Virus record (IMG/VR): IMGVR_UViG_2531839529_000007
Reading direction: 5' to 3' (one strand)
DNA from: a virus
Taxonomy: Duplodnaviria > Heunggongvirae > Uroviricota > Caudoviricetes
DNA: 38,184 nt
Within the stretch, counting starts at the first letter, position 1. The number at the start of each line of letters is the position of its first letter. The notes beneath the pieces are model-generated. The model searched no databases and was not told the DNA's origin. It saw only the letters and a list, made by a program, of their open reading frames with translations. Both the position numbers and the translations under genes were made by a program. Shown piece after piece: positions 1 to 25,266 of this stretch.

Positions 1-1254
1 ATGCTGGAACAAATGGGCATTGCCGCGAAGCAAGCCTCGTATAAATTAGCGCAACTCTCCAGCCGCGAAAAAAATCGCGTGCTGGAAAAAATCGCCGATG
101 AACTGGAAGCACAAAGCGAAATCATCCTCAACGCTAACGCCCAGGATGTTGCTGACGCGCGTGCCAATGGCCTTGGCGAAGCGATGCTTGACCGTCTGGC
201 ACTGACGCCCGCACGGCTGAAAGGCATTGCCGATGATGTGCGCCAGGTGTGTAACCTCGCCGATCCGGTGGGGCAGGTAATCGATGGCAGCGTACTGGAC
301 AGCGGCCTGCGTCTTGAGCGTCGTCGCGTGCCGCTGGGGGTGATTGGCGTGATTTATGAAGCGCGCCCGAACGTGACGGTTGATGTCGCTTCGCTGTGCC
401 TGAAAACCGGTAATGCGGTGATCCTGCGTGGTGGCAAAGAAACCTGTCGCACTAACGCGGCAACGGTGGCGGTGATTCAGGACGCCCTGAAATCCTGTGG
501 CTTACCGGCGGGTGCCGTGCAGGCGATTGATAATCCTGACCGTGCGCTGGTCAGTGAAATGCTGCGTATGGATAAATACATCGACATGCTGATCCCGCGC
601 GGCGGGGCTGGTTTGCATAAACTGTGCCGCGAACAGTCGACAATCCCGGTGATCACAGGTGGTATAGGCGTATGCCATATTTACGTTGATGAAAGCGCAG
701 AGATCGCTGAAGCATTAAAAGTGATCGTCAACGCGAAAACTCAGCGACCGAGCACATGTAATACGGTAGAAACGTTGCTGGTGAATAAAAACATCGCCGA
801 TAGCTTCCTGCCCGCATTAAGCAAACAAATGGCGGAAAGCGGCGTGGCATTACACGCAGATGCAGCTGCGCTGGCGCAGTTGCAGACAGGCCCTGCGAAG
901 GTGGTGGCGGTTAAAGCCGAAGAGTATGACGATGAATTTCTGTCATTAGATTTGAACGTTAAAATCGTCAGCGATCTTGACGATGCCATCGCCCATATTC
1001 GTGAACACGGCACACAACACTCCGATGCGATCCTGACCCGCGATATGCGCAACGCCCAGCGTTTTGTTAACGAAGTGGATTCGTCCGCTGTTTACGTTAA
1101 CGCCTCTACGCGTTTTACCGACGGCGGCCAGTTTGGTCTGGGTGCGGAAGTGGCGGTAAGCACACAAAAACTCCACGCGCGTGGCCCAATGGGGCTGGAA
1201 GCACTGACCACTTACAAGTGGATCGGCATTGGTGATTACACCATTCGTGCGTAA
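1..1254 (+). CDS. proA: Gamma-glutamyl phosphate reductase
   Basis: 417-aa ORF matching my recollection of E. coli ProA along its whole length; followed by thrW as in the enterobacterial proBA-thrW locus. Confidence 0.95.
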
Positions 1255-1368
1255 ATAAAACCGGGTGATGCAAAAGTAGCCATTTGATTCACAAGGCCAT
1301 TGACGCATCGCCCGGTTAGTTTTAACCTTGTCCACCGTGATTCACGTTCGTGAACATGTCCTTTCAGG

Positions 1369-1444
1369 GCCGATATAGCTCAGTTGGTAGAGCAGCGCAT
1401 TCGTAATGCGAAGGTCGTAGGTTCGACTCCTATTATCGGCACCA
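1369..1444 (+). tRNA. thrW: tRNA-Thr (anticodon CGU)
   Basis: 76-nt sequence GCCGATATAGCTCAGTTGGTAGAGCAGCGCATTCGTAATGCG...GGCACCA with clear cloverleaf elements, CGT anticodon and 3' CCA; a known phage integration target. Confidence 0.95.
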
Positions 1445-1458
1445 TTTAAATCAATAAG

Positions 1459-2622
1459 TTACACATCATTAGTACCTTCCTTATTTTTTGACTGGGACAA
1501 ATTTGGGACCGATGGGTTCAGGATCGAGTCTATTTGCCGTGCGTGTTCGGTAAGGTGATTAGGTGCAAGGTGAGCATATCGACGAACCATTTCGATAGAC
1601 TCCCAGCCTCCCATTTCCTGTAACACTGACAACGGGACTCCGGCTTGAACCAGCCAGCTTGCCCAGGTGTGTCTCAAGTCGTGAAATCTGAAATCATCAA
1701 TACCAGCCCGTCTCAGCGCCGCTTTCCAGGCTGTGTTTGCGTCATACCGCATCTTCCTGACCGTTGGCGCTTTCGTTCCGTCTGGTTTGGTACAGCTTTC
1801 CTTGTACACAAATACCCAACGGTGATGATTCCCGATTTGTTTTTTCAATACGCGACATGCAGTATCATTCAGCGCAACGCCAATTGCGCGGTTTGATTTA
1901 CTCTCTTCCGGGTTTATCCATGCCACCCGGCGCTGCATGTCTATTTGTTGCCATTCAAGGTTGATGATGTTCGAGCGTCTTAAGCCTGTTGCCAGTGCAA
2001 ATTCAACAACAGACTTTAATGGCTCCGGACATTCATCAATCAGCCTTTGTGCTTCATGGGGCTCCAGCCAGCGGATCCGTTTATTCTTTGGTTGAGGCAC
2101 TTTAATAATTGGTGCCTTATCCAGCATTTTCCATTCACGCTCTGCGGCTCTTAGTAGGGCCTTTATAAATGAAAGATGCGTAGCCTTCGTTGCAACGGAC
2201 GCTGGTTTTGGCGTGTATTCTGGAACAGGTTTCCCTTTTTTTCTGCATGCTTCTGCCCTGAGTTTCCAGTTTTCCTCATGACGCCGGTTCGTCATTTTCT
2301 GCATTGCTGAATAAATTTTTGATTCAGTAATGTCTCTTAGTTGCATTCCTGCGAAATGTTGAAGCCAAAATCCGATCCGGCTTTTGTCATCGTCCAGTGA
2401 TTTTTTATGTGCTTTCTCTTCAAGCCACCTGACACACGCTTCCTCGAACGTTATATCAGGTATTTCACCAAGTTTGCTGACCCGCCATGCTTCAGCCTTT
2501 AGCTTGTCATGGAGTTCTGTCGCCTGCCTTTTGTCCTTTGTTCCAAGAGACTGTTTAAATCTTTTACCGTTCGGCAATGTGAAACTGGCGTACCATATTT
2601 CACCTCTGCGGAAGAGTGACAT
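1459..2622 (-). CDS. int: Tyrosine integrase, P22-like
   Basis: 387 aa, very close to my recollection of phage P22 Int (conserved HDLRHTWAS...VRRYAHL C-terminal catalytic region); stop codon 14 nt from the thrW 3' end, typical attL-proximal position. Confidence 0.93.
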
Positions 2623-2849
2623 TTTCTTTCCTCTGTTATGCCATCACCCGCGCTCACCTGGACAGTATGCAGCGGAGACTGAAGAGCCGCAATGCAGGCT
2701 TGTCGTGTTGTGAGGTAAGGAGATTTATTCTTAGTGGGATCTTTGCGTGTTGCCTGAAGACGCCCTGTGCGTATCCAGTTAATGGCAGTCGGTCTGGATA
2801 TCTTGAGAAAATGACAGGCCTCATCGAGTGTGAGGCTGTATGGCTCCAT
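2499..2849 (-). CDS. xis: Excisionase, P22-like
   Basis: 116 aa from the internal ATG ([21 protein letters not shown]...), matching P22 Xis; 3' end overlaps the int 5' end as in P22 and lambda. The longer 144-aa track ORF is an upstream extension. Confidence 0.85.
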
Positions 2850-3193
2850 TATTTCACCTCTTGCTGTGACATTGTTGAAAAATGGATACCAGCTCGTTGC
2901 TGCCAGACGATCCAACCGAGAGTCATATCCCATGCCATGTATTCGTTATCGCCGTTTTTTGCTCTCCGACGATCGACTGTTTTACCGAAACGCTTTTCCA
3001 TAAATAATTCATAGGCTGCGCGTTCATCTGGCTCAACTTCCAGAGATGCCAGTGCAATCCGTGCCAGTTCTAAATCATTTTCAAGCTCAGCGCGAATCTC
3101 AGCGAATGCACTCTGTGTTAAGGCGAACTCAATGCTCTGCACTTTATTCCGTGCGCGCTCAAGCAGTGCATGGTAGTTAATTTCGGTTGTCAT
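2849..3193 (-). CDS. Hypothetical early-left (ea-region) protein
   Basis: 114-aa ORF translationally coupled to its neighbours (ATGA overlap upstream, 1-nt overlap with the xis start); no recognised domain. Confidence 0.55.
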   Translation of the reverse strand: MTTEINYHALLERARNKVQSIEFALTQSAFAEIRAELENDLELARIALASLEVEPDERAAYELFMEKRFGKTVDRRRAKNGDNEYMAWDMTLGWIVWQQRAGIHFSTMSQQEVK

Positions 3194-4068
3194 ACCCCTA
3201 CCTCTTCGAATTCCAATTCCAATTGATCACCCCAGATTTCACATGACTCTGAACACGAGCCGGTATCGAATCGCCTGGCCTGTACCATCGCCTGATACAA
3301 ATTTCTGTAGTCGCTGTTGGCAGACATTCTGGCAATTCCGTCAAGCGTCAGGTGACCACGGTACATAATGTCTTTACCTGTTCTGCGATGACCATCCCTG
3401 ACGTGTTTGCCTGTAACCAGCTCATTAAAAACTCGCATCAGACCTGGTTCGTCTTTACATGCAAGCCCCAGCTTTTGCGTTGACTTTTTGATGCAGAAAA
3501 CACAGTTCCCGAGATGCTCCGGGATTTGCAAATCAAAAGGTTGTTTTCGCCACCACCGGATAACATCCGACTTATCAAAATCTGACAGCTCGGCAAGATA
3601 CCGGACGCCCGATTTCGGTTTCAGCCTACGGGGTTCGTCTGCACGAATACCCAGCCATGTGATGTAATTACCTCGCCCGAAATGGTTATCGCAGTATTTC
3701 GTGAAAGGGATGAGTTTTAGCCTGTCAGTACAGAACGCGCCGCCGATGTATGGCGTGCCGTACTTTTTAACCATGTCCATAAACGGTTTAAGCACCGGCA
3801 TTCGTGTCTGAATATCCTTTGGCTCCCATTCTGTATAACCATTTGGCTGCCCAAGCTCAGGATTTATATCGACCTGTAACACAGTTAGTGGTATGTCCCA
3901 GAACTTCACAACCTCCCGGATAAAGCGGTATGTCAGCGGATGTTCGCAACCGGTATCCATAAAGATGTAGCAGACGTTATTGCCAGCCTTTCTTTGTTCT
4001 TCCATCAGGTGAACAAGATATGCGGATGTTCTCCCGCCAGAAAAACTAACTACATGAGTTATGCACAT
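3190..4068 (-). CDS. Phosphoadenosine phosphosulfate (PAPS) reductase family protein
   Basis: PP-loop motif VVSFSGGRTSAYL near the N-terminus. Start placed at the internal ATG (MCITHVV...) because the track's longer start at 4185 would overlap the upstream gene by about 126 nt. Confidence 0.75.
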   Translation of the reverse strand: MCITHVVSFSGGRTSAYLVHLMEEQRKAGNNVCYIFMDTGCEHPLTYRFIREVVKFWDIPLTVLQVDINPELGQPNGYTEWEPKDIQTRMPVLKPFMDMVKKYGTPYIGGAFCTDRLKLIPFTKYCDNHFGRGNYITWLGIRADEPRRLKPKSGVRYLAELSDFDKSDVIRWWRKQPFDLQIPEHLGNCVFCIKKSTQKLGLACKDEPGLMRVFNELVTGKHVRDGHRRTGKDIMYRGHLTLDGIARMSANSDYRNLYQAMVQARRFDTGSCSESCEIWGDQLELEFEEVGV

Positions 4069-4595
4069 TTGCGTAATTCCGATAACTCGTTGAAGCGTTC
4101 CATAAACATCCCGTAGGCATGGCCCGGTGCCAGTGGAATAACTTTGAACATCTCTGTTGCCGGGATACCTTCCAGTACAGGCCATAAAGAGCCATCATCA
4201 AGCCCGAGATCACGGCGTTCGGTTGCCAGCATGATGAGATCGGCATATTTCACAGGCGTGCTCATAACCGGGGGCAACTCGTATTTCTCACGGATTACTG
4301 CATCTATTTTTTCTTCCATCCGTTTATAGTCAGGAAGAAGGCGTTTCAGTGGCGCCGGGATGTCCTGGCAATACGCTTCTGTTGCATCATGCATTAACGC
4401 TTCAAAAGCAAATTCCTGCGGTACCAGCTGGCTGCAAAGAACCGCATGTTGGGCGACGCTGTAGAAGTGCGAAAGATGACCGGCAAAGCGACAGATATTT
4501 GAAAGGGAAACCGCGATATCGTTAATATCGATGTCGTCTTTATTTATCCTGTCATAATAAAAATGCTTCCCGGAAAAAGTTTTAATAAATGACAT
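4059..4595 (-). CDS. yfdR: HD-domain phosphohydrolase (YfdR-like)
   Basis: 178 aa from ATG at 4595 preceded by a GGAG SD; HD motif (LMHDATEAY); size and sequence resemble the CPS-53 prophage YfdR family. The track's 4622 start is a GTG extension. Confidence 0.7.
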   Translation of the reverse strand: MSFIKTFSGKHFYYDRINKDDIDINDIAVSLSNICRFAGHLSHFYSVAQHAVLCSQLVPQEFAFEALMHDATEAYCQDIPAPLKRLLPDYKRMEEKIDAVIREKYELPPVMSTPVKYADLIMLATERRDLGLDDGSLWPVLEGIPATEMFKVIPLAPGHAYGMFMERFNELSELRKCA

Positions 4596-4722
4596 TTTGT
4601 TCTCCACGTATATGCGCTGCACCGCGCTGAATTCTGGTAAAAAGAATCCCTAACCATCCGGCGATTATTGAGTAAATTACGTTTCCATAAATGCCCCCGC
4701 AGGGGCATTTGCAGTAATGAAA

Positions 4723-5547
4723 TCAGGCGGTGAAAGTACCAATAAAGGTTTCTACTTTGCTGTCCTTGAATTTCTCAACAAGCAGATCACGAAATTCGTT
4801 AGCCATTTCTTCCTGCACCGCCTCCAGCTGAATAATGCGCAGAACCAGTACCGGACGATCGCCAGTGATAATGCTGAGGCGTAATTTAAACGGACGTTCT
4901 TTCAGACCTTCAAACGGAATGCATTTAAATTCAAATGCCACTGGCATAATGTCTTTGGTCTTCGCTTCGACAGACTCCATCAGGGAGCGTTTGCCGCTGA
5001 AGTCATTATCTTCAAAATCAGCGGTCTGGTTTGCTTCAATCGTGATTTTACGGACCGCCGCAGCCGCTTTTGTTGCCTGAATGGTGTCACCATTAGCATC
5101 AAAGCCCACAAGGTAGTCGGCCCAGTCTTCAATCCATTCTGCCAGTGATTTCTGGGAGTTACGCTCGCCATTAACAGACAACAGAGCAGAGAACGGTGCT
5201 GTCTTTTTCAGTTTGAGAGTGGCGGTGTTATCTGCGTGACCTGGTTCATCAATAGTACCCAGGTTAAGCACACTGACGGCACGCATATTATCAGCATCGA
5301 TAAAGCAGCGGGTGCCTTCATCTGCAAGATCTTTAGAATAACGGGTAAAGTCATCGATGCTGGCAGTGGAAAGCGCACCACGGAAACGGAAGCGATTTAA
5401 ATTAAATTTTTCCAGATCATGAATGCGGAAATTCTCAGGCAATGCCACAGCATCGGCACCAATCTTACTGATAATTTCATTAACACCCTGAGCAGAAATA
5501 AGGGCATGGATTTGATTAATTGCGGTTGCGTCTAAGTTCTGAGACAT
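4723..5547 (-). CDS. yfdQ: DUF2303 / YfdQ family prophage protein
   Basis: 274 aa with a GAGGA SD upstream; length and sequence consistent with the YfdQ family of lambdoid prophages. Confidence 0.75.
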
Positions 5548-5612
5548 AATAAGTCCTCACTATATAAAGATATTCAGTGATGAGATAAATAATCAGTTAA
5601 TTAAGAACGATA

Positions 5613-5975
5613 TTAATGACCTGCTGCGCGGAGTTTTCCGTCAGGTTCACCGGCAAGAGTCAGTAATTGTCCCTGGTCTTCCTGCAGAATAGTCAGGCGA
5701 CCACCGCGATTGACATACATCGGCGTTTCGGTGGTGTCTTCTTCGGAAATTTTCCCGCGGTTAGTCGGGCGAACATATGAGAGTTTGTGTTTGATTTTCA
5801 CACGGTTCTCATCAAATGGTTCGATTTCCAGGTTGAGTGAGACCTTACCTTTGGTTTTCGTGTTCATCACACCGGAAGCGACTTCACTGAGAACTGCGCC
5901 GATTTTGGTTTCAAATACGCCGCCGTCCAGCTCCCCGATAAATGCCTGCACATCAGTACTGCGTTCGCTAGCCAT
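5613..5975 (-). CDS. Hypothetical prophage protein (YfdP-like)
   Basis: 120 aa from the ATG at 5975, which has an AGGAG SD 7 nt upstream (MASERSTDVQAFIGELDGG...). The track's 226-aa ORF is an unlikely N-terminal extension through GC-rich intergenic DNA. Confidence 0.6.
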   Translation of the reverse strand: MASERSTDVQAFIGELDGGVFETKIGAVLSEVASGVMNTKTKGKVSLNLEIEPFDENRVKIKHKLSYVRPTNRGKISEEDTTETPMYVNRGGRLTILQEDQGQLLTLAGEPDGKLRAAGH

Positions 5976-6023
5976 TTTGCTGCTCCTCATCATATCGACC
6001 CTGCAAGGCCGATTAGTTTCTCC

Positions 6024-6112
6024 ACAAAACAGAGAAGAACACCTGCGGTAGCAGCCGCCCGGATGGATTGGGTTATGAGCCCGTCGTCCGGTGATGCTCT
6101 TCTCTGTTTTGT
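6024..6112. repeat. Perfect 15-bp inverted repeat enclosing a 59-nt GC-rich segment
   Basis: 6024-6038 (ACAAAACAGAGAAGA) is the exact reverse complement of 6098-6112; the enclosed loop has further internal complementarity (GCGG..CCGC, CCGGA..TCCGG). Lies in the divergent intergenic region. Confidence 0.4.
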
Positions 6113-6412
6113 AAAAAGGACGGTACCAGCCGGAAGCAAGGGTACAAACTGGTACCGCCAGGACTACACACAGCATAAAGTTGTGGTGCCGGGTGCCTCC
6201 CGGTGCCTGGCGAAGGTTGCACACCAGACGGGTGGGTATCCACAGAAGGTCGACTGTCAGCCTCAACCTTAACCCGCGTGCGCTGAGCCGCATTCACCAC
6301 AACGCTAAGGATTCTCTTTGGTTGAAAATACTTAGCTGTTATGTGCCTGTCTTTTCACCACTTCAGGCTCGGTGGTATCCTTTTAAGCCCGTATACATAA
6401 AAGGAAAATCAA

Positions 6413-6641
6413 ATGACTTTTGATGAAAAAGAACTTGATAATGCAATTAATAAAATCATCGTAACGTCGCTCTTTTCCTGTCTCAGCGACACTCAGCAGA
6501 AACAGTTCTACGAATCGGCTTTCAACATGATCGAGCGTTGTTGTTTCTGCGATGCCGACGAGTTACCTGAAAAAATCAGGAAACAGTTGGCTGATGCTCT
6601 TCGAGTGCGACTTTCTGACCAATTTTCTGAAATGTGCTCTC
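6413..6641 (+). pseudogene. Hypothetical gene truncated by IS911 insertion
   Basis: ATG at 6413 with an AAGGA SD; reading frame runs straight into the IS911 terminal inverted repeat at 6642 (...SEMCSL then IS sequence). Confidence 0.55.
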
Positions 6642-6671
6642 TGAAGTGGTCAACAAAAACTGGCCACCGAG

Positions 6672-7157
<486 letters not shown>

Positions 7158-7180
7158 CTATTTCCCTGCCTCTCCTCCCC

Positions 7181-7214
7181 GAACCGGACGTGCACCTTTC
7201 AGCGCATCCGGCTC
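7181..7214 (-). ncRNA. Group II intron domain V (catalytic hairpin)
   Basis: Minus strand GAGCCGGATGCGCTGAAAGGTGCACGTCCGGTTC: 34-nt hairpin with AGC triad region, bulge and GAAA tetraloop, followed by a domain VI-like hairpin and the 3' splice site. Confidence 0.8.
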
Positions 7215-7219
7215 TCCAT

Positions 7220-8743
7220 TTAAATGCTGGCGAACGCCATTGCCACTTCTGTAAAGCGCGATGTATACGTGTTTCTGGTCTCCGTCCTCAGATAGGGATT
7301 ACCTTCGGGTAGCCGCCAGCGGAACAGCTTCTTGCCTTGCCCCACCAACCGGTACAGTATTTCGCCGCTGAGCTTGCCGTGATTGGTTTTACCAAATAAA
7401 ACCCACGTTTTGCTCTGACCCGGTTTCGGTGATTTACACCACCACCTCATCAGGGAAGCGATACCTGTACGGTATTTGCGGGCCAGCCAGTGAGCCAGCT
7501 TCCAGAACACGACACGGTCGATATAACTGAAGACTTTGGCCTTAAAATCAACGAACTGATAGAACATGGCCCAGCCTTTCAGTTTTCGGTTGAGTTGTTC
7601 AGCCATATCGACTTTGCTTTCACTGTAGTTGCCTGATAACAGTGCTGTCAGCGATGCGGCGAAGTTTCTGGCTTTCTCCTGCGGGATCGTTGAGACCACT
7701 CGCATCTCGCCATAACGACTGCGTTTGCGAATGATCCTGTGCCCCAGAAAGATAAAGCCGTCATTAACATGGGTGATTTTAGTCTTATCCATGTTCAGCC
7801 TGAGTTTCAGACTGCCTTCGAGCACACCCCGACACTCCTCCCTGATGGCTTCCGCCTGTGCTTTGGTGCCTTTGACGATGAGGACAAAATCATCGGCATA
7901 GCGGCAGTACGCCACCGCGGGTTTCCACTGCCAGTTTTCTCTGACCGCCGTACTTCGGCCCCGTTGGATACTGTTATTCCAGTACCACCGATCTTTTCTG
8001 GCTTTCCCGCTCAGGTAGCGCTCATGCAGGTATTGATCGAACTCATTCAGCATGATGTTCGATAATAGCGGCGATATAACACCGCCCTGTGGCACACCTT
8101 CACTGGCCGCCCGAAAGAGACCGACATCGATATGTCCCGCCTTGATGGTTTTCCACAGCAGAGTCATGAAACGTGCGTCACTGATCCTGCGGCGTACAGC
8201 CTTCATCAGCAGTCGATGATGTACGGTGTCGAAGTAACTGGACAGGTCGCCTTCAATCACCCAGCGTCCCCGGGTTTCACCACAGTCTGTGAGCTGTAAT
8301 TTCACCGTGCGGATAGCGTGGTGGACACTGCGCTCAGGCCGGAAGCCATATGAGAGCGTATGAAAATCACTCTCCCATATCGGCTCCATCGCCATCAGCA
8401 TGGCCCGCTGAACAATACGATCCCGCAACGCGGGGATACCCAGTGGTCGCAGTTTGCCGTTGCTTTTAGGGATGTAAACCCGTCTGGCGGGCAAGGGCTG
8501 GTAGTGGCCTGAGAGTAATTCATCCCTGAGGATTTGCAGCTCAACAGCTAGTCTGGCCTGTAGCATTGTTTTGTTCACGCCATCAACGCCGGGGGTATGG
8601 GCCCCCTTTGATGAAAGCGTGATCCGCGCCGCTTCAGCCAGCCATTCTGGTTGTGTTATCAGACGCAGCAGCCGTTGAATCCGTAGGGACGGATCGGTGA
8701 CTGCCCATGTGGCAAGCTTGCGTTGCATTTCGCTGATTATCAA
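7220..8743 (-). CDS. Group II intron-encoded reverse transcriptase/maturase
   Basis: 507 aa with RT motifs (GVPQGGVISPLLSNIMLNEFD; YADDFVLIV) and a C-terminal maturase-like region; no obvious HNH endonuclease domain. Confidence 0.9.
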   Translation of the reverse strand: MIISEMQRKLATWAVTDPSLRIQRLLRLITQPEWLAEAARITLSSKGAHTPGVDGVNKTMLQARLAVELQILRDELLSGHYQPLPARRVYIPKSNGKLRPLGIPALRDRIVQRAMLMAMEPIWESDFHTLSYGFRPERSVHHAIRTVKLQLTDCGETRGRWVIEGDLSSYFDTVHHRLLMKAVRRRISDARFMTLLWKTIKAGHIDVGLFRAASEGVPQGGVISPLLSNIMLNEFDQYLHERYLSGKARKDRWYWNNSIQRGRSTAVRENWQWKPAVAYCRYADDFVLIVKGTKAQAEAIREECRGVLEGSLKLRLNMDKTKITHVNDGFIFLGHRIIRKRSRYGEMRVVSTIPQEKARNFAASLTALLSGNYSESKVDMAEQLNRKLKGWAMFYQFVDFKAKVFSYIDRVVFWKLAHWLARKYRTGIASLMRWWCKSPKPGQSKTWVLFGKTNHGKLSGEILYRLVGQGKKLFRWRLPEGNPYLRTETRNTYTSRFTEVAMAFASI

Positions 8744-9399
8744 AGGTCTTCACCTCGTTAGGTCAGTTAATTCACGTCGCAAACACATTCAAACTGCTTC
8801 CCTTCGCCATGTAATGGGCTTTCCCCATCGCGGACTACTACGGAAGCTCCGCCAGCCAGCGCGTCATCGGAGCCATGCCCCCTTAACATCCGTCGCTGAC
8901 CTTCCCCGGTTTACCTGCCTGGACTCAGGCATACTGAGGAGGCTGCCCGTCGCACTCTTTATCCTTGCTTGCCGCAAGTTGGCAGAAGTCAGCAACGCAA
9001 GCGTGATAGACGCTGCTGCCCCGGTGTTTCGCATACATGTCAAAACACCTTCGACCGGCAGTGCTTACGTATCACTGCCAGTTCCTCCTGCACGGCCTGT
9101 CAGATCACGTAGGCCGTGGTGACGTTTTCAACCCACAGAGGCGGATTAACGGGTTCATGTTCTTCAGCCTTTCAGTACTTAACCTTGAGGATCATCTCGG
9201 CTTAGTGATCTCGCCTCAATCCCCGTTGTCAGCGGGTTACATCACCCTGCGGGCATGCCGCAGGTCACTGCCGCTCAGGTTCTCCACCGTCACACCCGGT
9301 GGGATTGTTGGGTTTCTCATCGTGAGTTACCGGTTCAATATTCCAGACAGACTCGCGGTTCATTTAAGCATCCATGTCCGCCCTGAACTCCGGGCACAC

Positions 9400-10089
<690 letters not shown>

Positions 10090-10211
10090 TATGGCACCTG
10101 TGTTGTTCTGAGGTGAGCATATCACCTCTGTTCAGGTGGCCAAATTCAGTAAACCACAACAGTTTCCTCAATTTGCACCTGCTGTATCAGCGAGGTGAGA
10201 GATAACTACAA

Positions 10212-10538
10212 ATGCCTCATAACCCAAATACCTGGCTGGAGTTGGTCCAGAGCTGGTGGCGTGGAGACACACCGCTGGGCGCAGTGATTATGTCGATCGT
10301 TATGGCTGGTTTACGTATTGCCTATTTTGGCGGCGGTGGCGGCTGGAAACGAAAAACACTCGAAATTTTGCTCTGTGGCGCTCTGACGCTGACATTTGCA
10401 TCCGCTCTTGAGTATGTCGGATGGCCTAAATCACTTTCTGTTGCCATTGGTGGTGGTGTTGGGCTGATCGGTGTCGATGCTATTCGTGGGGCAGCAATGC
10501 GAGTAATCGGTAACAAATTTGGTAGCTCGAAGGAGTAA
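10212..10538 (+). CDS. Holin (lambda S-like class)
   Basis: 108 aa with hydrophobic segments and a lambda S-like pattern, immediately upstream of the endolysin gene. Only about 50 bp separate it from the IS end, so no room for a late promoter. Confidence 0.7.
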   Translation: MPHNPNTWLELVQSWWRGDTPLGAVIMSIVMAGLRIAYFGGGGGWKRKTLEILLCGALTLTFASALEYVGWPKSLSVAIGGGVGLIGVDAIRGAAMRVIGNKFGSSKE

Positions 10539-10541
10539 TTT

Positions 10542-11018
10542 ATGCAGGCACTAAATTCCCAGCGTAAAGCTTTCCTTGATATGGTGGCATGGTCAGAAGG
10601 AACGGATAACGGGCGACAACCGACACGTAACCACGGTTATGACGTTATTGTTGGTGGTGAACTGTTTACTGATTACTCCGATCACCCTCGCAAACTTGTC
10701 ACGCTAAACCCCAAACTCAAATCAACAGCCGCCGGACGTTATCAGCTTCTTTCACGCTGGTGGGATGCTTACCGTAAGCAGCTTGCTCTGAAAGACTTCT
10801 CTCCGAAAAGCCAGGATGCTGTGGCATTGCAGCAGATTAAGGAGCGTGGCGCTTTACCGATGATTGATCGCGGTGATATTCGTCAGGCAATTGACCGTTG
10901 CAGCAATATCTGGGCTTCACTGCCGGGCGCTGGTTATGGTCAGTTCGAGCATAAGGCTGACAGCCTGATTGCAAAATTCAAAGAAGCAGGCGGAACGGTC
11001 AGAGAGATTGAGGTATGA
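10542..11018 (+). CDS. R: Endolysin (lambda R-type lytic transglycosylase)
   Basis: 158 aa, near-identical over most of its length to my recollection of lambda R ([22 protein letters not shown]...); AAGGAG SD. Confidence 0.92.
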
Positions 11019-11476
11019 GCAGAGTAACCGCGATTATTTCCGCTCTGGTTATCTGCATCATCGTTTGCTTGTCATGGGCTGTTAATCATTACCGCGATAA
11101 CGCCATTACCTACAAAGCCCAGCGCGACAAAAATGCCAGAGAACTGAAGCTGGCGAACTCGACAATTACTGACATGCAGATGCGTCAGCGTGATGTTGCT
11201 GCGCTCGATGCAAAATACACGAAGGAGTTAGCTGATGCGAAAGCTGAAAATGATGCTCTGCGTGATGATGTTGCCGCTGGTCGTCGTCGGTTGCACATCA
11301 AAGCAGTCTGTCAGTCAGTGCGTGAAGCCACCACCGCCTCCGGCGTGGATAATGCAGCCTCCCCCCGACTGGCAGACACCGCTGAACGGGATTATTTCAC
11401 CCTCAGAGAGAGGCTGATCACTATGCAAAAACAACTGGAAGGAACCCAGAAGTATATTAATGAGCAGTGCAGATAG
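11015..11476 (+). CDS. Rz: Spanin, inner-membrane subunit (Rz)
   Basis: 153 aa with N-terminal TM segment, lambda Rz-like; ATGA overlap with the R stop. Confidence 0.88.
11235..11417 (+). CDS. Rz1: Spanin, outer-membrane lipoprotein subunit (Rz1), embedded in Rz
   Basis: 60 aa in the +1 frame inside Rz; lipobox (LVVVGC) and proline-rich body as in lambda Rz1. Confidence 0.85.
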
Positions 11477-11507
11477 CGCTGCCCATATCGATGGGCAACT
11501 CATGCAA

Positions 11508-11801
11508 TTATTGTGAGCAATACACCCGCGCTTCCAGCGGAGTATAAATGCCTAAAGTAATAAAACCGAGCAATCCATTTACGAATGTTTGCTGGGTTTC
11601 TGTTTTAACCACATTTTCTGCGCCGCCACAAATTTTGGCTGCATCAACAGTTTTCTCCTGTCCAATTCCCGAAACGAAGAAATGATGGGTGATGGTTTCC
11701 TTTGGTGTTACTGCTGTCGGTTTGTTTCCAACAGTAAACGTCTGTTGAGCACATCCTGTAATAAGCATTGCCAGAGCGGCAGAAAACAACATTTTTTTCA
11801 T
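11508..11801 (-). CDS. bor: Bor lipoprotein (serum-resistance-associated)
   Basis: 97 aa from MKKMLFSAALAMLITGC..., matching lambda Bor; lipoprotein signal peptide; GGA SD. The track ORF has a 16-aa upstream extension. Confidence 0.88.
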   Translation of the reverse strand: MKKMLFSAALAMLITGCAQQTFTVGNKPTAVTPKETITHHFFVSGIGQEKTVDAAKICGGAENVVKTETQQTFVNGLLGFITLGIYTPLEARVYCSQ

Positions 11802-11981
11802 CTTATTATCCTGCATTGTTAAAAACGGCAGAATCCTATGTGACAACAATTAAACGATAGTTAAATGGATTGATGAAAATTAAAACTATATAGGTGTACG
11901 GTCAGACTATTGGAGGTAGTCAGGATTTGAATGTCAGTCTGTTGTCGGCATTCTGGCAATGCAATTTGGATAAAGCGGGGA

Positions 11982-12104
11982 TTAAAAAGATAGAGGCGAG
12001 CCGGTCAGGTAGAAATGAATCAGGCTCAAAGTGAAGCGGAAAAGGTCTGTGGTACAAGCTGATGCAGCCATAATTACAGCCTGATGATTTGTGGAATGAA
12101 ACAT
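11982..12104 (-). CDS. Candidate small protein (40 aa), partly hydrophobic
   Basis: ATG at 12104 preceded by a perfect AAGGAGG SD 6 nt upstream; encodes MFHSTNHQAVIMAASACTTDLFRFTLSLIHFYLTGSPLSF; upstream of and co-oriented with bor. Below the 60-aa track cut-off. Confidence 0.35.
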   Translation of the reverse strand: MFHSTNHQAVIMAASACTTDLFRFTLSLIHFYLTGSPLSF

Positions 12105-12184
12105 GTTGAACCTCCTTAATTGATGTTATTCGAGTGATGAAGGCATTCTGTCCTTCTATAGTGTCCAGTAAATCAAACAGGAAA

Positions 12185-12206
12185 CTTGTCCAACGTGTTG
12201 GACAAG
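12185..12206. promoter_or_regulatory. Perfect 10+2+10 palindrome (possible operator or terminator), followed by a second hairpin at 12221-12241
   Basis: CTTGTCCAAC-GT-GTTGGACAAG is self-complementary; GAGTTGT-ATTGATC-ACAACTC follows 15 nt later; both lie in the AT-rich region between bor and the HNH gene. Confidence 0.3.
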
Positions 12207-12326
12207 CCTCTCCATTAGTGAGTTGTATTGATCACAACTCTACAAAGAATTCATTACTGGGTAGATGAAAATAGTTTCACGATGAATGGAGGAGGCTATG
12301 TCGGTGGCTTCTTCATTGGAGTACAT

Positions 12327-12677
12327 ATGCCATCACGAATCCCAAAAGCCTGCCGTGTTCGTGGCTGCCGCCATACCACCACAGACCCGTCAGGCTATTG
12401 TGAAAGCCACAAAAGCGAAGGCTGGAAGCAATACAAGCCAGGACAATCCCGTCATCAGCGCGGTTATGGTTCGAAGTGGGATGTTATCCGCGTGCGTGTG
12501 TTGAAGCGTGACAAAGGACTGTGCCAGTTGTGCCTGCGTGCCGGTGTGGTGCGTGAAGCGAAAACCGTTGATCACATCATCCCTAAAGCGCATGGCGGCT
12601 CTGATGCCGACAGTAATCTGCAGAGCCTGTGCTGGCCGTGTCATAAGGCGAAGACGGCCCGTGAACGGCTGAAGTAA
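12327..12677 (+). CDS. HNH endonuclease (terminase-associated, HK97 gp74-like)
   Basis: 116 aa from MPSRIPKACRVRGCRH... with CxxC/HNH-type motifs (DHIIPKAHGG, CWPCHKAK); GGAG SD; immediately upstream of the terminase genes. Confidence 0.85.
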   Translation: MPSRIPKACRVRGCRHTTTDPSGYCESHKSEGWKQYKPGQSRHQRGYGSKWDVIRVRVLKRDKGLCQLCLRAGVVREAKTVDHIIPKAHGGSDADSNLQSLCWPCHKAKTARERLK

Positions 12678-12703
12678 GAACCAGTTCCCACTGCCAGAGG
12701 GGA

Positions 12704-12766
12704 GGGGCGGGTCAAATCCCTGTGGCCTGACGTCTTCCGGACTGCCCGCCCCATCGTTTTTTTATA
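12704..12766 (+). terminator. GC-rich inverted repeat plus T-tract; intrinsic terminator and/or part of the cos region
   Basis: GGGGCGGG (12704-12711) pairs with CCCGCCCC (12745-12752), followed by ATCGTTTTTTTATA; lies in the 125-bp gap between HNH and terS where cos sites sit in HK97-like phages. Confidence 0.4.
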
Positions 12767-12802
12767 CCCGCGAAAAATGAAATTTAACCAGGAGTGCCGC
12801 AT

Positions 12803-13297
12803 ATGGCTGGAACGGCGGGGCGTTCCGGGCGTCGCCCTAAGCCAACGGCGCGCAAGGCGCTGGCCGGAAACCCCGGCAAGCGAGCCCTGAACAAAGATGA
12901 ACCTGTTTTTACGCCCATCAAAGGTGTTGAGCCACCGGAGTGGTTCGCTGAAGAAGAGCTTCCTCTCGCCACGATCATGTGGCAACTGACAACCAAAGAA
13001 CTCTGCGGTCAGGGCCTGCTGTGCGTGACTGACCTCGCAGTGCTTGAGCGGTGGTGCGTGGCCTATGAGTTCTGGCGACGTGCCGTGAAAAATATTGCCA
13101 GACAGGGCAACACCATCACCGGTGCAATGGGCGGCATGGTCAAAAATCCGGAGCTGACCGCCAAGAAAGAACAGGAGTCCGAGATGAGCAGCACGGGGGC
13201 AATGCTCGGACTCGACCCCAGCAGCCGCCAGCGTCTGATTGGCCTGGCGGGGCAGAAGAAAGCCACTAACCCGTTTCTGAAAATCATCGAATCATGA
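12803..13297 (+). CDS. Terminase small subunit (P27/HK97-like)
   Basis: Start taken at the ATG at 12803 with an AGGAG SD 8 nt upstream ([15 protein letters not shown]...); family-typical sequence; overlaps the terL start. Confidence 0.85.
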
Positions 13298-15027
13298 GCC
13301 GGAAATCTTACCCCAACGTAAATGCTGCCAATCAGTATGCCCGTGATGTCGTGCGCGGAAAGATTGTGGCCTGCCAGTTTGTGATTCAGGCCTGCCAGCG
13401 CCATCTTGATGACCTGATGGCGGAAAAAAGTAAGTCGTTTCGTTACCGCTTCGACAAGGTCCTGGCTGAACGGGCCGCCAAATTTATTCAGCTGTTGCCG
13501 CACACCAAGGGTGAGTGGGCATTTAAACGGATGCCCATCACGCTGGAGCCGTGGCAGCTATTTGTGATCTGCTGTGCGTTTGGCTGGGTCAATAAAGGCT
13601 CCCGATTGCGCCGCTTCCGGGAGGTGTATACCGAAATCCCCCGTAAGAACGGCAAATCGGCAATCTCTGCCGGTGTTGCCCTGTATTGTTTTGCCTGTGA
13701 TAACGAGTTTGGCGCGGAAGTGTATTCCGGTGCCACGACGGAGAAACAGGCGTGGGAAGTCTTTCGTCCGGCACGACTGATGTGTAAACGCACACCCATG
13801 CTGACGGAAGCGTTCGGGATTGAGGTTAACGCCTCAAACATGAACCGTCCGGAGGATGGTGCGCGTTTTGAACCGCTGATCGGTAACCCTGGTGATGGTT
13901 CATCACCCCACTGTGCGGTGGTGGATGAATATCACGAGCACGCCACAGATGCGCTTTACACCACGATGCTTACCGGGATGGGGGCGCGACGTCAGCCACT
14001 GATGTGGGCTATCACTACCGCCGGGTACAACATTGAGGGGCCGTGCTACGACAAACGGCGGGAAGTCATCGAGATGCTCAACGGTTCGGTACCCAACGAT
14101 GAACTGTTCGGGATCATCTATACCGTTGATGAAGGTGACGACTGGACCGACCCGCAGGTGCTGGAAAAAGCCAATCCAAATATTGGCGTGTCGGTTTATC
14201 GCGAATTTTTGTTAAGTCAGCAGCAGCGTGCGAAAAATAACGCCCGTCTGGCAAACGTCTTTAAAACAAAACACCTCAATATCTGGGTGTCGGCGCGTTC
14301 GGCGTATTTCAACCTGGTAAGCTGGCAGAGCTGCGAGGATAAATCACTGACCCTTGAGCAGTTCGAGGGGCAGCCGTGCATTCTGGCCTTTGACCTGGCG
14401 CGTAAGCTGGATATGAACAGCATGGCGCGACTTTATACCCGCGAGATTGACGGTAAAACGCATTACTACAGTGTGGCCCCGCGTTTCTGGGTACCGTATG
14501 ACACGGTGTACAGCGTCGAGAAAAATGAAGATCGACGGACAGCCGAACGCTTTCAGAAATGGGTGGAAATGGGCGTCCTGACCGTTACCGATGGTGCAGA
14601 GGTGGATTATCGCTACATCCTCGAAGAGGCCAAAGCGGCGAACAAAATCAGCCCGGTCAGCGAGTCACCCATCGACCCCTTCGGGGCGACCGGGCTCTCA
14701 CATGACCTTGCTGATGAAGACCTGAACCCCGTCACCATCATTCAGAACTACACCAACATGTCCGACCCGATGAAAGAGCTGGAAGCGGCAATTGAATCGG
14801 GGCGCTTTCATCATGATGGCAATCCCATCATGACCTGGTGTATCGGCAACGTGGTCGGCAAAACCATTCCGGGTAACGATGATGTGGTGAAGCCCGTCAA
14901 AGAGCAGGCGGAAAACAAAATCGATGGTGCAGTTGCGCTGATTATGGCGGTTGGCAGAGCCATGCTGTACGAGAAAGAAGACACGCTGTCTGACCACATT
15001 GAATCCTATGGGATCCGCTCGCTTTAA
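13294..15027 (+). CDS. Terminase large subunit
   Basis: 577 aa with ATPase and nuclease regions typical of HK97-type large terminases. Confidence 0.9.
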
Positions 15028-15038
15028 CTGAGGTAATT

Positions 15039-15221
15039 ATGATCATGCTGATTCTCGCGCCTCTGGTGGGCGTGCTGGGTGCGCTTTTGCTGGCGTATGG
15101 TGCCTGGCTGATTTATCCCCCGGCGGGGTTTGTTGTTGCCGGGGCGCTGTGCCTGTTCTGGTCGTGGCTGGTGGCGCGATATCTCGACCGTACACATCCG
15201 TCTGTCGGCGGAGGTAAATAG
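15039..15221 (+). CDS. Small membrane protein (60 aa)
   Basis: ATG with a GAGGT SD; two predicted hydrophobic helices ([46 protein letters not shown]); between the terminase and portal genes. Confidence 0.5.
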
Positions 15222-16462
15222 TGTTCTTTTCGGGATTATTTCAACGAAAAAGTGACGCACCGGTGACCACGCCAGCAGAGCTGGCGGATGCTATCGGGCT
15301 GTCATATGACACCTATACCGGAAAGCAGATCAGCAGCCAGCGGGCCATGCGACTGACGGCGGTTTTTTCCTGCGTCAGGGTGCTGGCGGAGTCGGTCGGG
15401 ATGTTGCCCTGCAACCTGTATCACCTGAACGGCAGCCTGAAACAGAGAGCCACCGGCGAACGTCTGCATAAACTGATCTCCACGCATCCCAATGGCTATA
15501 TGACGCCGCAGGAGTTCTGGGAGCTGGTGGTCACCTGTCTGTGCCTGCGGGGAAACTTTTACGCCTACAAAGTGAAAGCATTTGGCGAAGTGGCTGAACT
15601 GCTGCCCGTCGATCCCGGCTGTGTGGTACCGAAGCTTAACAGTAGCTGGGAGCCGATCTATCAGGTCACATTCCCGGATGGCTCCACGGATGTACTGAGC
15701 CAGGAGGATATCTGGCATGTGCGCACGCTGACGCTGGACGGACTGGTGGGGCTGAATCCCATCGCCTATGCCCGCGAGGCAATATCGCTGGCAGCTGCGA
15801 CCGAAGAGCACGGGGCCAGACTGTTCAGCAATGGCGCGGTGACGTCGGGTGTGTTGCGTACAGAGCAGACGCTGTCAGATCAGGCTTATGAGCGCCTGAA
15901 GAAAGATTTTGAGGAGCGTCACACCGGGCTTGGCAATGCTCACCGCCCGATGATCCTTGAGATGGGGCTGGACTGGAAGTCGATGGCGCTGAACGCCGAG
16001 GACAGCCAGTTCCTGGAAACCCGCAAGTTTCAGCTTGAAGAAATCTGTCGTCTGTTCCGGGTGCCGTTGCACATGGTGCAGAACACCGATCGCGCCACCT
16101 TCAACAATATCGAAGAGCTGGGGCTGGGATTTATCAACTATTCACTGGTGCCGTATCTGACCCGCATCGAACAGCGGATCAACACCGGACTGGTACGAAA
16201 AAGTAAGCAGGGCGTTTATTACGCCAAATTTAACGCCGGGGCGTTACTGCGCGGGGATATGAAGTCCCGTTTTGAAGCCTACGCCACCGGGATCAACTGG
16301 GGAATTTACTCTCCCAATGACTGCCGCGACCTGGAAGATATGAATCCGCGTCCCGGTGGTGATGTCTATCTCACACCGATGAACATGACCACGAAACCCT
16401 CCGATGGCAGTAAAGCCGGTAAGCAGAAGGATAACGCCAATGCAGACGAAACAACGTCTTGA
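15221..16462 (+). CDS. Portal protein (HK97 family)
   Basis: 413 aa; GTG start with a GGAGG SD 7 nt upstream; position and size typical of HK97-type portals. Confidence 0.85.
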   Translation: MFFSGLFQRKSDAPVTTPAELADAIGLSYDTYTGKQISSQRAMRLTAVFSCVRVLAESVGMLPCNLYHLNGSLKQRATGERLHKLISTHPNGYMTPQEFWELVVTCLCLRGNFYAYKVKAFGEVAELLPVDPGCVVPKLNSSWEPIYQVTFPDGSTDVLSQEDIWHVRTLTLDGLVGLNPIAYAREAISLAAATEEHGARLFSNGAVTSGVLRTEQTLSDQAYERLKKDFEERHTGLGNAHRPMILEMGLDWKSMALNAEDSQFLETRKFQLEEICRLFRVPLHMVQNTDRATFNNIEELGLGFINYSLVPYLTRIEQRINTGLVRKSKQGVYYAKFNAGALLRGDMKSRFEAYATGINWGIYSPNDCRDLEDMNPRPGGDVYLTPMNMTTKPSDGSKAGKQKDNANADETTS

Positions 16463-17090
16463 TGTACCGCTGAGTCTGAAATCTGTCAGTGACTCCGGTG
16501 AGTTTGAAGGGTATGGCTCCGTCTTTGGTGTAAAGGACAGCCACGATGATGTGGTGATGTCCGGGGCATTTGCTGCTTCCCTGCGGGCGTGGAGTGACAG
16601 AAAAGCGTTACCTGCGCTGCTCTGGCAGCACCGCATGGATGAACCCATCGGTGTTTACACCGAAATGAAGGAAGACGATGTCGGGCTTTACGTCAGGGGA
16701 CGGTTGCTTATTGATGATGATCCCCTCGCAAAACGCGCACATGCACACATGAAGGCCGGTTCGTTAACCGGCCTTTCTATTGGGTACGTCCTGAAAGACT
16801 GGGAATACGACCGGAGCAAAGAAGCCTTTCTGCTGAAAGAAATCGACCTCTGGGAAGTCAGCCTGGTGACGTTCCCGTCTAACGACGAGGCGCGGATCAG
16901 CGACGTCAAGAACGCACTGGCCCGCGGGGAAATCCCCGAACAGAAAAAAATCGAAAGAGTCCTGCGTGATGTCGGACTCTCCCGCACCCAGGCCAAAGCA
17001 TTCATGGCCGGGGGCTATAGCGCACTGTCCCTGCGCGACGCTGAGGATGTGGGCTCTGCACTGAATGCACTGAAAAATCTGAACTTCTAA
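16440..17090 (+). CDS. Prohead protease (HK97 family, S78-like)
   Basis: Start taken at the ATG at 16440 with an AAGGA SD (MQTKQRLDVPL...); conserved prohead-protease region; overlaps the portal 3' end. Confidence 0.85.
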   Translation: MQTKQRLDVPLSLKSVSDSGEFEGYGSVFGVKDSHDDVVMSGAFAASLRAWSDRKALPALLWQHRMDEPIGVYTEMKEDDVGLYVRGRLLIDDDPLAKRAHAHMKAGSLTGLSIGYVLKDWEYDRSKEAFLLKEIDLWEVSLVTFPSNDEARISDVKNALARGEIPEQKKIERVLRDVGLSRTQAKAFMAGGYSALSLRDAEDVGSALNALKNLNF

Positions 17091-17104
17091 TCAGGAGAAA
17101 TACG

Positions 17105-18310
17105 ATGGCGGTTGATATTAAAGATGTCGAACAGGTCGCGCAGGAGCTGCAGCAGAAGTTTGACGACTTCAAAGCAAAGAACGACAAGCGCGTGGATGCG
17201 ATTGAGCAGGAAAAAGGCAAGCTTGCCGGGCAGGTGGAAACCCTGAACGGGAAACTCAGCGAGCTGGAAAATCTCAAAAGCGACCTTGAAAAAGAGCTGC
17301 TTGAGCTGAAACGTCCGGCTGGTGGAGCGCAAAATAAACTGGCCACCGAGCATAAAGAGGCGTTTGTGGGCTTCCTGCGTAAAGGCCGTGAAGACGGTCT
17401 GCGCGATCTGGAGCGTAAGGCATTGCAGGTGGGTACCGATGAAGACGGTGGCTACGCCGTGCCGGAAGAACTGGATCGCAACATTCTTAACCTGCTGAAA
17501 GATGAAGTGGTGATGCGTCAGGAAGCCACGGTGATCACCGTTGGCGGTTCCGACTACAAAAAACTGGTGAATCTGGGCGGTACGGCTTCCGGATGGGTGG
17601 GAGAAACGGATACGCGATCCCAGTCTGCCACCTCCAGACTGGAGCTGATTGAACCTCTCATGGGGGAAATTTACGGCAACCCGCAGGCTACCCAGAAAAT
17701 GCTGGACGATGCCTTCTTCAACGTGGAGGCCTGGATCAACAGCGAGCTGGCAACCGAATTTGCCGAACAGGAAGAAATTGCCTTTACCTCAGGCGATGGC
17801 ACCAAGAAGCCGAAAGGGTTCCTGGCGTATGAATCCACTGATGAAACCGACAAGGTCCGGGCGTTCGGCAAACTTCAGCATATTGTATCCGGCGAAGCGA
17901 CCGCGGTGACCGCAGACGCCATTATCAAACTGATTTACACGCTGCGTAAGGCACACCGCACTGGCGCGAAGTTCATGATGAACAACAACAGCCTGTTTGC
18001 CATCCGTCTGCTTAAAGACAGCGAGGGTAACTATCTGTGGCGTCCGGGGCTGGAACTGGGGCAGCCGTCCTCTCTGGCGGGTTACGGTATCGCTGAAAAC
18101 GAACAGATGCCGGATATCGCCGCTGATGCGAAAGCCATTGCATTTGGTAACTTCAAACGGGGTTACACCATCGTTGACCGTATCGGCACCCGCATTCTGC
18201 GTGACCCGTACACCAATAAACCGTTTGTCGGTTTTTATACCACCAAGCGCACCGGCGGGATGCTGGTCGATTCGCAGGCCATCAAACTGCTGAAGATTGC
18301 AGCGGCGTAA
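17105..18310 (+). CDS. Major capsid protein (HK97 fold)
   Basis: 401 aa with N-terminal coiled-coil delta-domain-like region and an HK97-family body; followed by the stem-loop GGCGCGG-AA-CCGCGCC. Confidence 0.9.
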   Translation: MAVDIKDVEQVAQELQQKFDDFKAKNDKRVDAIEQEKGKLAGQVETLNGKLSELENLKSDLEKELLELKRPAGGAQNKLATEHKEAFVGFLRKGREDGLRDLERKALQVGTDEDGGYAVPEELDRNILNLLKDEVVMRQEATVITVGGSDYKKLVNLGGTASGWVGETDTRSQSATSRLELIEPLMGEIYGNPQATQKMLDDAFFNVEAWINSELATEFAEQEEIAFTSGDGTKKPKGFLAYESTDETDKVRAFGKLQHIVSGEATAVTADAIIKLIYTLRKAHRTGAKFMMNNNSLFAIRLLKDSEGNYLWRPGLELGQPSSLAGYGIAENEQMPDIAADAKAIAFGNFKRGYTIVDRIGTRILRDPYTNKPFVGFYTTKRTGGMLVDSQAIKLLKIAAA

Positions 18311-18359
18311 TCACTCAAGGGCGCGGAACCGCGCCCCCTGTTCTGACGGGTGAAGAATC

Positions 18360-18560
18360 ATGATCCTGAAACAAGATCTGAAATGGTCACCGGACGGTAT
18401 GCGTGTTGAGGTCATTCGGGCCGGTGAGTATGACGACGGGGCACTTCCTGCCCGGGTGCAGGAGATTGCACTTCAGGCCGGGTTAGCAGAGCGCGGAATC
18501 AGTGCAAAAAGCAGTAAAGCGGCAAAAGAGAAAAAAGCCACGACCAGTAAAGAGGGCTGA
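18360..18560 (+). CDS. Hypothetical small head-module protein
   Basis: 66-aa ORF with ATG start between the capsid and connector genes; lysine-rich C-terminus. Confidence 0.45.
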   Translation: MILKQDLKWSPDGMRVEVIRAGEYDDGALPARVQEIALQAGLAERGISAKSSKAAKEKKATTSKEG

Positions 18561-18562
18561 GT

Positions 18563-20331: not shown

Positions 20332-20339
20332 GGATCCTC

Positions 20340-24589: not shown

Positions 24590-24617
24590 CCAGGATTCCC
24601 CTCACATGTATTGCTGG

Positions 24618-24645: not shown

Positions 24646-24680
24646 TAATGCACATTTAGAAAAATGTTAATAGGCGAAAA

Positions 24681-25211: not shown

Positions 25212-25231
25212 TTAATAAAATTCATTACAAG

Positions 25232-25263: not shown

Positions 25264-25266
25264 GGA

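Follow-up and report, generated by a model that had tools for sequence, protein, structure and literature searches.

An SfIV-type prophage at thrW that has very probably lost its central control region by deletion at an insertion sequence carrying a group II intron

Introduction

The Shigella serotype-converting phages SfI, SfII, SfIV and SfV are lambdoid myoviruses that integrate at thrW. SfIV is UV-inducible and carries cI and Cro as orf37-38, a replication module as orf41-45 and the antiterminator Q as orf46, while N, cII and cIII are absent from SfII, SfIV and SfV (PMC3851460). Here we describe a thrW prophage of an Escherichia coli strain in a stretch of 38,184 nucleotides (IMG/VR record IMGVR_UViG_2531839529_000007, the window), which an initial annotation made from the sequence alone had taken for a cryptic prophage without recombination, immunity, replication and late-regulator regions. 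Our analysis indicates that it is very probably a prophage of the SfIV/SfII/SfV group whose central control region has been lost through a deletion associated with an insertion sequence (IS).

Cryptic lambdoid prophages are familiar from Escherichia coli K-12, where CPS-53/KpLE1, DLP12, Rac and e14 are defective and have kept useful genes. In the IS3 family, IS-associated deletions without duplications are documented, and in the Lenski long-term lines IS150 has produced both adjacent deletions and deletions by IS-IS recombination (PMC11708052). The group II intron E.c.I4 homes into the transposase genes of IS629, IS911, ISEc16 and ISEc31, and IS-intron tandems larger than 3 kb have been proposed to promote recombination (PMC3522654). 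Every component of the present locus is of a known kind, namely an SfIV-type thrW prophage, an ISEc52/IS911-like IS, an IS-homing group II intron and a deletion at an IS junction; it is a new, strain-specific instance of well-known prophage decay, and involves no new mechanism or family.

Absence of the central region

The junction of the early-left genes with the lysis cassette has the following anatomy.

6413 to 6641, + strand: small open reading frame (ORF), cut, with 76 codons kept and its frame running into the IS to 6796
6639 to 6641: left flank of the IS, CTC, with no repeat on the other side
6642 to 10161, − strand: composite mobile element of 3,520 bp, an IS911-like IS (ISEc52) with a group II intron
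10162 to 10164: right flank of the IS, GTT
10162 to 10211, + strand: remnant of 50 bp before the holin gene, starting with GTT and holding the ribosome-binding site
10212 to 10538, + strand: holin gene, ATG at 10212, 50 bp past the IS end

This arrangement agrees with the initial annotation, which had seen a truncated ORF, then an IS, then the holin gene within 50 bp: the ORF at 6413, 81 residues long in intact relatives, reads into the IS after the loss of only 5/81 codons, and the IS ends at 10161. The homology of relatives ends at 6641 and restarts at 10162, and both breakpoints are IS termini to the base. Positions 4061-6641 and 10162-24588 are co-linear with the thrW prophage of E. coli FDAARGOS_1277.

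To define the missing segment, relatives were compared as the initial annotation had proposed, using the thrW prophages of E. coli FDAARGOS_1277 and L1PEag1 and other thrW prophages, with SfIV as the functional standard. 'Escherichia phage vB_EcoM-689R6' was dropped from that role, its record including chromosomal genes such as icd. The distances from breakpoint to breakpoint are as follows.

thrW prophage of E. coli FDAARGOS_1277: 8,348 bp
thrW prophage of E. coli L1PEag1: about 9.5 kb
Phage SfIV (isolated, UV-inducible): 10,045 bp
Present window, corresponding segment: 3,787 bp, of which 3,520 are IS

In the relatives this interval encodes, in order, an S24/LexA-type repressor, Cro, the CP76 (YmfL) regulator, DUF4222, an HTH_36 replication protein, PerC, Dam (in some only), a LexA_DNA_bind protein, RusA, KilA-N, DUF968 and the Q antiterminator, with variable cargo between Q and the holin gene as its last part. 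This order is kept in 9/10 contexts of an identical holin and in 8/10 contexts of an identical PAPS-reductase-like gene. When 30 central-region proteins were compared by tblastn with the whole 38-kb window none matched at E<0.001 (best E=0.008), the sole exception being a 26-residue remnant at the left breakpoint. In the stretch from the early-left genes to the lysis cassette there is thus no cI/Cro pair, replication module or Q, and the element is therefore a defective derivative of the SfIV/SfII/SfV group and not a complete member.

The missing segment extends over 8.3-10 kb, from the S24 repressor through Q and the cargo behind it. The losses listed in the initial annotation hold for the repressor switch, replication, nin-type genes (RusA), Q and the late-promoter region, but not for N and recombination, which were never part of this phage group; Red-type recombination genes were found in none of the relatives' loci examined. 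Nor do the lost functions appear to be supplied from elsewhere in the same integrated unit. No homologue of the central immunity and replication proteins occurs anywhere in the window, the prophages of relatives end about 650 bp beyond it, and in 8/8 contexts of the trypsin-like peptidase gene, the last of the window, what follows is the integrase of another island, an IS or genes of the chromosome, with nothing phage-like among them.

As a separate observation, the gap between Q and the holin gene is a hotspot for variable defence cargo in intact relatives (at about 8000-9700 of the loci compared), where it holds Kiwa KwaA/KwaB, a Thoeris-like ThsB_TIR protein with a caspase-like C14 protein, a KAP NTPase, NA37 and an SDH protease.

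The remainder of the prophage is intact. As the initial annotation had judged for structural, tail and lysis genes, 37 proteins (lysis, bor/iss, HNH, terminase, head, tail, baseplate, fibre, Pin and cargo) could be aligned at full length with relatives by tblastn, free of gaps and frameshifts at 89-100% identity, except for the tail-fibre (74%) and fibre-assembly (57%) proteins, which are mosaic and contain indels. For the head and contractile-tail genes at 15039-30270 the identity is 92-100%, with 0 gaps. Subtracting the IS from the window and adding 8.3-9.5 kb gives about 42 kb, matching the L1PEag1 prophage and SfII (41.5 kb). Next to the K-12 cryptic prophages this remnant stands out for its completeness (34 of about 42 kb, with no late-region pseudogenes), and its IS has an intron.

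The composite mobile element

The element at the junction consists of an IS interrupted by an intron, arranged as follows.

6642 to 7129, − strand: 3' part of the IS, with the orfB 3' end and the right inverted repeat (IRR)
7130 to 9399, − strand: group II intron of 2,270 bp, in sense orientation within orfB, with 5' GTGTG and 3' CTAC
7220 to 8728, − strand: ltrA, intron-encoded reverse transcriptase/maturase, 502 residues, intact (RVT_1 1.5e-34, GIIM 1.3e-10)
9400 to 10161, − strand: 5' part of the IS, with the left inverted repeat (IRL), orfA (9787-10089, 100 residues), the A6G frameshift site and the orfB 5' part

What had been called IS911 is indeed IS911-like, but it is not a plain IS: 1,250 bp of ISEc52 and the 2,270-bp intron make up the composite. 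Excision of 7130-9399 yields a 1,250-bp IS with TG...CA ends, a 100-residue OrfA, A6G at position 324 and an open orfB, which is 100% identical to natural intron-less copies such as that of enterotoxigenic E. coli H10407 and is named 'ISEc52 family' by the annotation pipeline PGAP. Because this removal exactly restores intron-less ISEc52 the intron boundaries are established, and the spliced orfB junction would join GACCTATA to TCTGGACG. The size, termini, orfA/orfB organisation and A6G −1 frameshift site are those of an IS3-family, IS911-like (ISEc52) element, a sequence-based assignment made by the PGAP naming. Its two ends are imperfect inverted repeats matching at 24/40 positions, OrfA matches Pfam HTH_Tnp_1, and the orfB 3' fragment carries the Pfam domains rve and rve_3. 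The IRL tip (TGTTGTGGTTT...) was considered as a damaged or truncated IS911 end and this was rejected, as identical full-length plasmid and chromosome copies share the tip and have a proper 3-bp duplication.

The intron has the attributes of group II, namely the domain V/VI RNA (Rfam RF00029 at 7130-7216, − strand, 64.9 bits against a gathering score of 40, at the intron 3' end), reverse transcriptase and maturase domains, and GUGYG/AY boundaries with exact restoration of the host gene. Its insertion point adjoins the first D of the DDE motif in orfB, and the ltrA gene is so annotated in an identical plasmid copy. The intron is probably of the E.c.I4 kind, to judge from the published target range. 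It resembles E.c.I4 (PMC3522654) in being a full-length, sense-oriented intron with reverse transcriptase/maturase that occupies a defined site within the orfB of an IS911-type element, and in forming a composite of more than 3 kb that is widespread on plasmids; it differs in its host IS, which here is an ISEc52 variant.

The whole composite is present on at least 258 plasmids. One of these copies, on the IncF plasmid NZ_CP035833, matches that of the window at 100.0% identity and ends at the same bases, and the triplet TAT stands on either side of it as a perfect 3-bp duplication.

A probable deletion bounded by the IS ends

Simple insertion would have left the composite between matching triplets, as on the plasmid, which serves as positive control with TAT on both sides. 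In the window the flanks are CTC and GTT, as the initial annotation had noticed, and the missing 3-bp duplication marks this copy as a deletion or recombination junction. An IS-associated deletion is indicated because, in addition, both homology breakpoints are exactly the IS termini. A lone IS at a deletion junction without target-site duplication is also what the documented IS3-family deletions leave behind. The same features bear on the idea that the central region was lost earlier, or was never there, independently of any IS, and that the IS landed later at the junction. Related decay is common in this family, and members do carry independent deletions without this IS, among them a locus with two other deletions (L009), NCTC9066 (only partial central genes) and WEM25 (whole late region gone). 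Against this, a simple later insertion gives a 3-bp duplication, which is not seen here, and a base-exact match of the breakpoints to the IS termini would be an unlikely coincidence, so that we regard such a history as highly improbable.

For the IS-associated deletion we infer the following order of events. A 3.5-kb composite of ISEc52 and an E.c.I4-type intron would first have entered the prophage, probably from an IncF plasmid. The central region may then have been lost by either of two routes, an adjacent deletion proceeding from one end of a single inserted copy, or homologous recombination between direct-repeat copies at the CTC and GTT sites. Either would leave a single IS copy with non-matching flanks, and the final structure is compatible with both; a tandem of IS and intron as long as 3.5 kb would speak more for recombination, by the argument of PMC3522654. 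Along with the S24-type repressor, Cro and the divergent promoters of the two, the event would have taken out the CP76 regulator, the replication module, RusA, KilA-N and DUF968, then the antiterminator Q, the region of the late promoter and whatever cargo lay between Q and the holin gene, about 8.3-10 kb in all.

The event is recent and strain-specific, since the late genes are undecayed, the IS is identical to the plasmid copy and the junctions are absent from 5,426 complete genomes. Within the window 21,734 bp, including both IS junctions, match contig AQFF01000002.1 (draft assembly GCA_000355175.1) at 100% identity. In complete RefSeq E. coli genomes neither junction is present (0/5,426), a scan of one genome per species gave no exact match to the right junction, and a look-up of the 127-residue fusion ORF formed at the junction returned no record.

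A P22-like prophage of E. coli AH21I008 offers a parallel, in that an independent ISEc52 of the same orientation stands in place of the replication-to-Q segment, upstream of a lambda-family holin gene. It differs in phage type and integration site, in having kept repressor, Cro and cII, and in that its IS has no intron. There (positions 11221-12842) the replication gene on one side of ISEc52 is truncated and the holin gene stands on the other, which looks like convergent IS-linked loss.

Several points weigh against a completed deletion with the consequences set out below. What exactly the lost segment contained in the ancestor of this strain is deduced from relatives, lambdoid genomes being mosaic. 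The attR site itself lies beyond the window. The consensus promoter scan, in which no sigma-70-like promoter was found in the 50 bp before the holin gene, is weak negative evidence and a weak guide to transcriptional silence. Finally, the contig to which the window is identical belongs to a draft assembly, and at least one further copy of the composite lies at the end of another of its contigs (AQFF01000018.1), showing that the assembler did not always resolve this repeat.

The draft state of the assembly and the further copy would fit an assembly artefact, in which two identical 3.5-kb copies in direct orientation, at the CTC and GTT sites, have been collapsed into one while the central region really lies between them. 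Non-matching flanks are the exact outcome of two independent insertions, and the model predicts hidden junctions of the form IS end-CTC-CGAATTTGG... and ...CATGAT-GTT-IS end. However, the second copy, which stands beside a Voltage_CLC (voltage-gated chloride-channel-family) gene, is distinguishable, being 99.83% identical with 6 differences in 3,474 positions, and the IS of the window lies deep within a 104-kb contig. The model further requires that the same variant inserted twice, independently and in one orientation, within 8 kb. Even if it were real, the two-copy arrangement would stand one step before the deletion. We therefore consider a collapse unlikely, and a completed IS-associated deletion the better account.

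Assembly GCA_000356625.2, whose prefix AQFE adjoins AQFF, has at least two IS-intron copies at contig ends. Look-ups for a central-region contig in GCA_000355175.1 and for the thrW locus of the sister assembly found neither. In the lineage of GCA_000355175.1 and GCA_000356625.2 the IS-intron element is a multi-copy repeat that is, or recently was, active.

Expected consequences for the prophage

As judged from its gene content, the remaining 34 kb is left without the means to sense DNA damage, to replicate or to transcribe the late operon; at the sequence level the essential functions of induction, replication and late transcription have been lost. The late block is expected to stay silent, and the prophage to be stable and unable to induce, because the element has no SOS-sensitive repressor, PL/PR promoters, replication genes, Q or late promoter. 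The initial annotation's view of a cryptic prophage unable to induce on its own is the natural reading of these lost parts and is supported by them. Morons with signals of their own, among them bor/iss and PD-T4-3, could still be expressed, and genes of the element could be rescued by recombination with an incoming relative.

The locus illustrates cleanly, and to the base, how a single step may turn a temperate phage into a locked-in prophage with its structural, lysis and cargo genes spared. Annotation tools that score prophages as 'intact' by counts of structural genes would miscall such an element. The strain would keep bor/iss and the defence cargo free of the risk of induction, but would lose superinfection immunity.

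Integration site and left arm

The prophage fills the window from 1448 up to its end, and its left arm is organised as follows.

1 to 1254: proA, first gene of the window
1369 to 1444, + strand: tRNA-Thr (CGT), thrW, the integration target (ARAGORN and Rfam RF00005)
1399 to 1447: attL core of 48-49 bp, found again as attR in relatives
1459 to 2622, − strand: tyrosine integrase, 387 residues, intact (Pfam Phage_integrase)
2499 to 2849, − strand: xis-like HTH_17 protein (Pfam; annotated in relatives; SfIV has its excisionase at the same position)
2849 to 3193, − strand: hypothetical protein, early-left accessory
3190 to 4068, − strand: PAPS-reductase-like protein (PAPS_reduct)
4059 to 4595, − strand: yfdR (YfbR-like)
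4723 to 5547, − strand: yfdQ / DUF2303
5613 to 5975, − strand: yfdP

A P22/SfIV-type integrase gene adjoins the 3' end of thrW, with an attachment core derived from the tRNA gene, and homology to SfIV starts at 1399, the first base of the attL core. The integrase matches SfIV Int at 100% identity and the enzyme of a P22-like Salmonella phage at about 90%, and with HTH_17 and yfdP/Q/R present the P22-like int-xis and early-left accessory genes of the initial annotation are borne out. In an exact-repeat search of two loci, the attR core of relatives lies about 650 bp past the trypsin-like peptidase gene; no second copy of the core (at least 12 bp) occurs inside the window, whose attR lies outside it.

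With SfIV, SfII, SfV and SfI the element shares the att core, HNH-terminase packaging, the HK97-type head and the Mu-like tail, and with SfIV in particular the identical integrase, the early-left cluster (SfIV orf30-34) and a lysis cassette of about 93% nucleotide identity. It differs from the SfIV group in being without cI, Cro, orf39-45, Q, the moron and the gtr serotype-conversion genes, and in that its tail fibre is Pin-invertible and a cargo block of defence type lies by attR. The intact thrW prophages of FDAARGOS_1277, L1PEag1 and ET979 are co-linear over the whole window at 97-100%, right-end cargo and 176-residue moron included; what sets them apart is the presence of the 8.3-9.5-kb central region, with no IS there.

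The early-left accessory block spans 2849 to 5975 on the − strand, and its yfdP, yfdQ and yfdR homologues we take to be genes of CPS-53. Positions 1-6645 are 99.2% identical to E. coli WEM25. Between yfdP and the ORF at 6413 lies a pseudogene that is frameshifted in every relative.

The IS transposase and intron genes point the same way as the promoterless early-left operon (yfdP-yfdQ-yfdR-PAPS reductase-xis-int), and no terminator-like site was found between them and it. Read-through from the IS might then give constitutive, repressor-independent early-left expression, with the intact but promoterless 23-kb lysis/virion block acting as a recombination reservoir for SfV-like phages, although we hold this combined scenario to be unlikely.

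The PAPS-reductase-like gene stands where SfIV and other relatives have yfdS/yfdT-type genes, a mosaic swap extending over 3058-4061, and gives weak SspD/BrxP-like matches in PADLOC.

Lysis, virion and cargo genes

To the right of the IS the prophage continues, from the holin gene, as follows.

10542 to 11018, + strand: endolysin
11015 to 11476, + strand: Rz
11511 to 11801, − strand: bor/iss lipoprotein moron (Pfam Lambda_Bor 6e-31)
12327 to 12677, + strand: HNH endonuclease
12803 to 13297, + strand: small terminase
13294 to 15027, + strand: large terminase
15039 to 30270, + strand: portal, protease, capsid, connectors, sheath, tube, tape measure and baseplate, full length
24681 to 25211, + strand: moron of 176 residues, GC content about 43%, between the tape-measure and DNA-circulation genes
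30274 to 33002: tail fibre with Pin-invertible segment
32448 to 33002: pin invertase
33064 to 38184: right-end cargo, with PD-T4-3 GIY-YIG, M78 peptidase and XRE helix-turn-helix (HTH), BRO-N protein and trypsin-like peptidase

The lysis cassette (10212 to 11476) is full length and 100% identical in amino acid sequence to that of FDAARGOS_1277. The late genes are those expected of the group, with HNH and P27-type terminase, HK97-type portal, protease and capsid, and Mu-like sheath, tube and baseplate, and from 10162 to about 30600 the region has about 97% nucleotide identity to SfII, SfI, SfIV and SfV over some 18 kb.

This completeness, together with a possible regulator among the cargo, bears on whether the element might instead be a regulated or mobilisable one, with the XRE-HTH and M78 pair as an ImmR/ImmA-type switch or with a helper phage acting in trans. 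An HTH/ImmA-IrrE pair is present at 34528-35412 (− strand), and int, xis, packaging and all virion genes are intact. The pair nevertheless coexists with the canonical S24 repressor, Cro and Q in the complete relative L1PEag1, also accompanies unrelated lambda-type tails, and matches the CapH/CapP defence regulators, and as a replacement immunity module it was rejected in favour of cargo. A helper's Q would lack its target, the late promoter (located by position) having been deleted together with Q, and no replication origin region is left. Mobilisation or regulation of this kind is thus most unlikely, and a defective, non-inducible prophage remains the preferred interpretation.

The cargo block may be a CapH/CapP-regulated defence unit. 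Its PD-T4-3 GIY-YIG defence gene is matched in PADLOC at 8e-140, the BRO-N protein and trypsin-like peptidase genes are divergent, and the block also holds two tiny ORFs. It is conserved and adjoins attR, and the same block occurs in SfV-like and lambda-like thrW prophages.

The invertible segment of the tail fibre is bounded by 24-nucleotide inverted repeats of the Pin/Gin type (30554-30577 and 32367-32390), and the fibre region has alternative C-termini (Gp53-like_C and Collar) and two tail-fibre assembly genes. The 176-residue moron, for which neither Pfam nor PADLOC gave a match, is shared with L1PEag1, and in FDAARGOS_1277 its place is taken by an OB-fold gene on the opposite strand.

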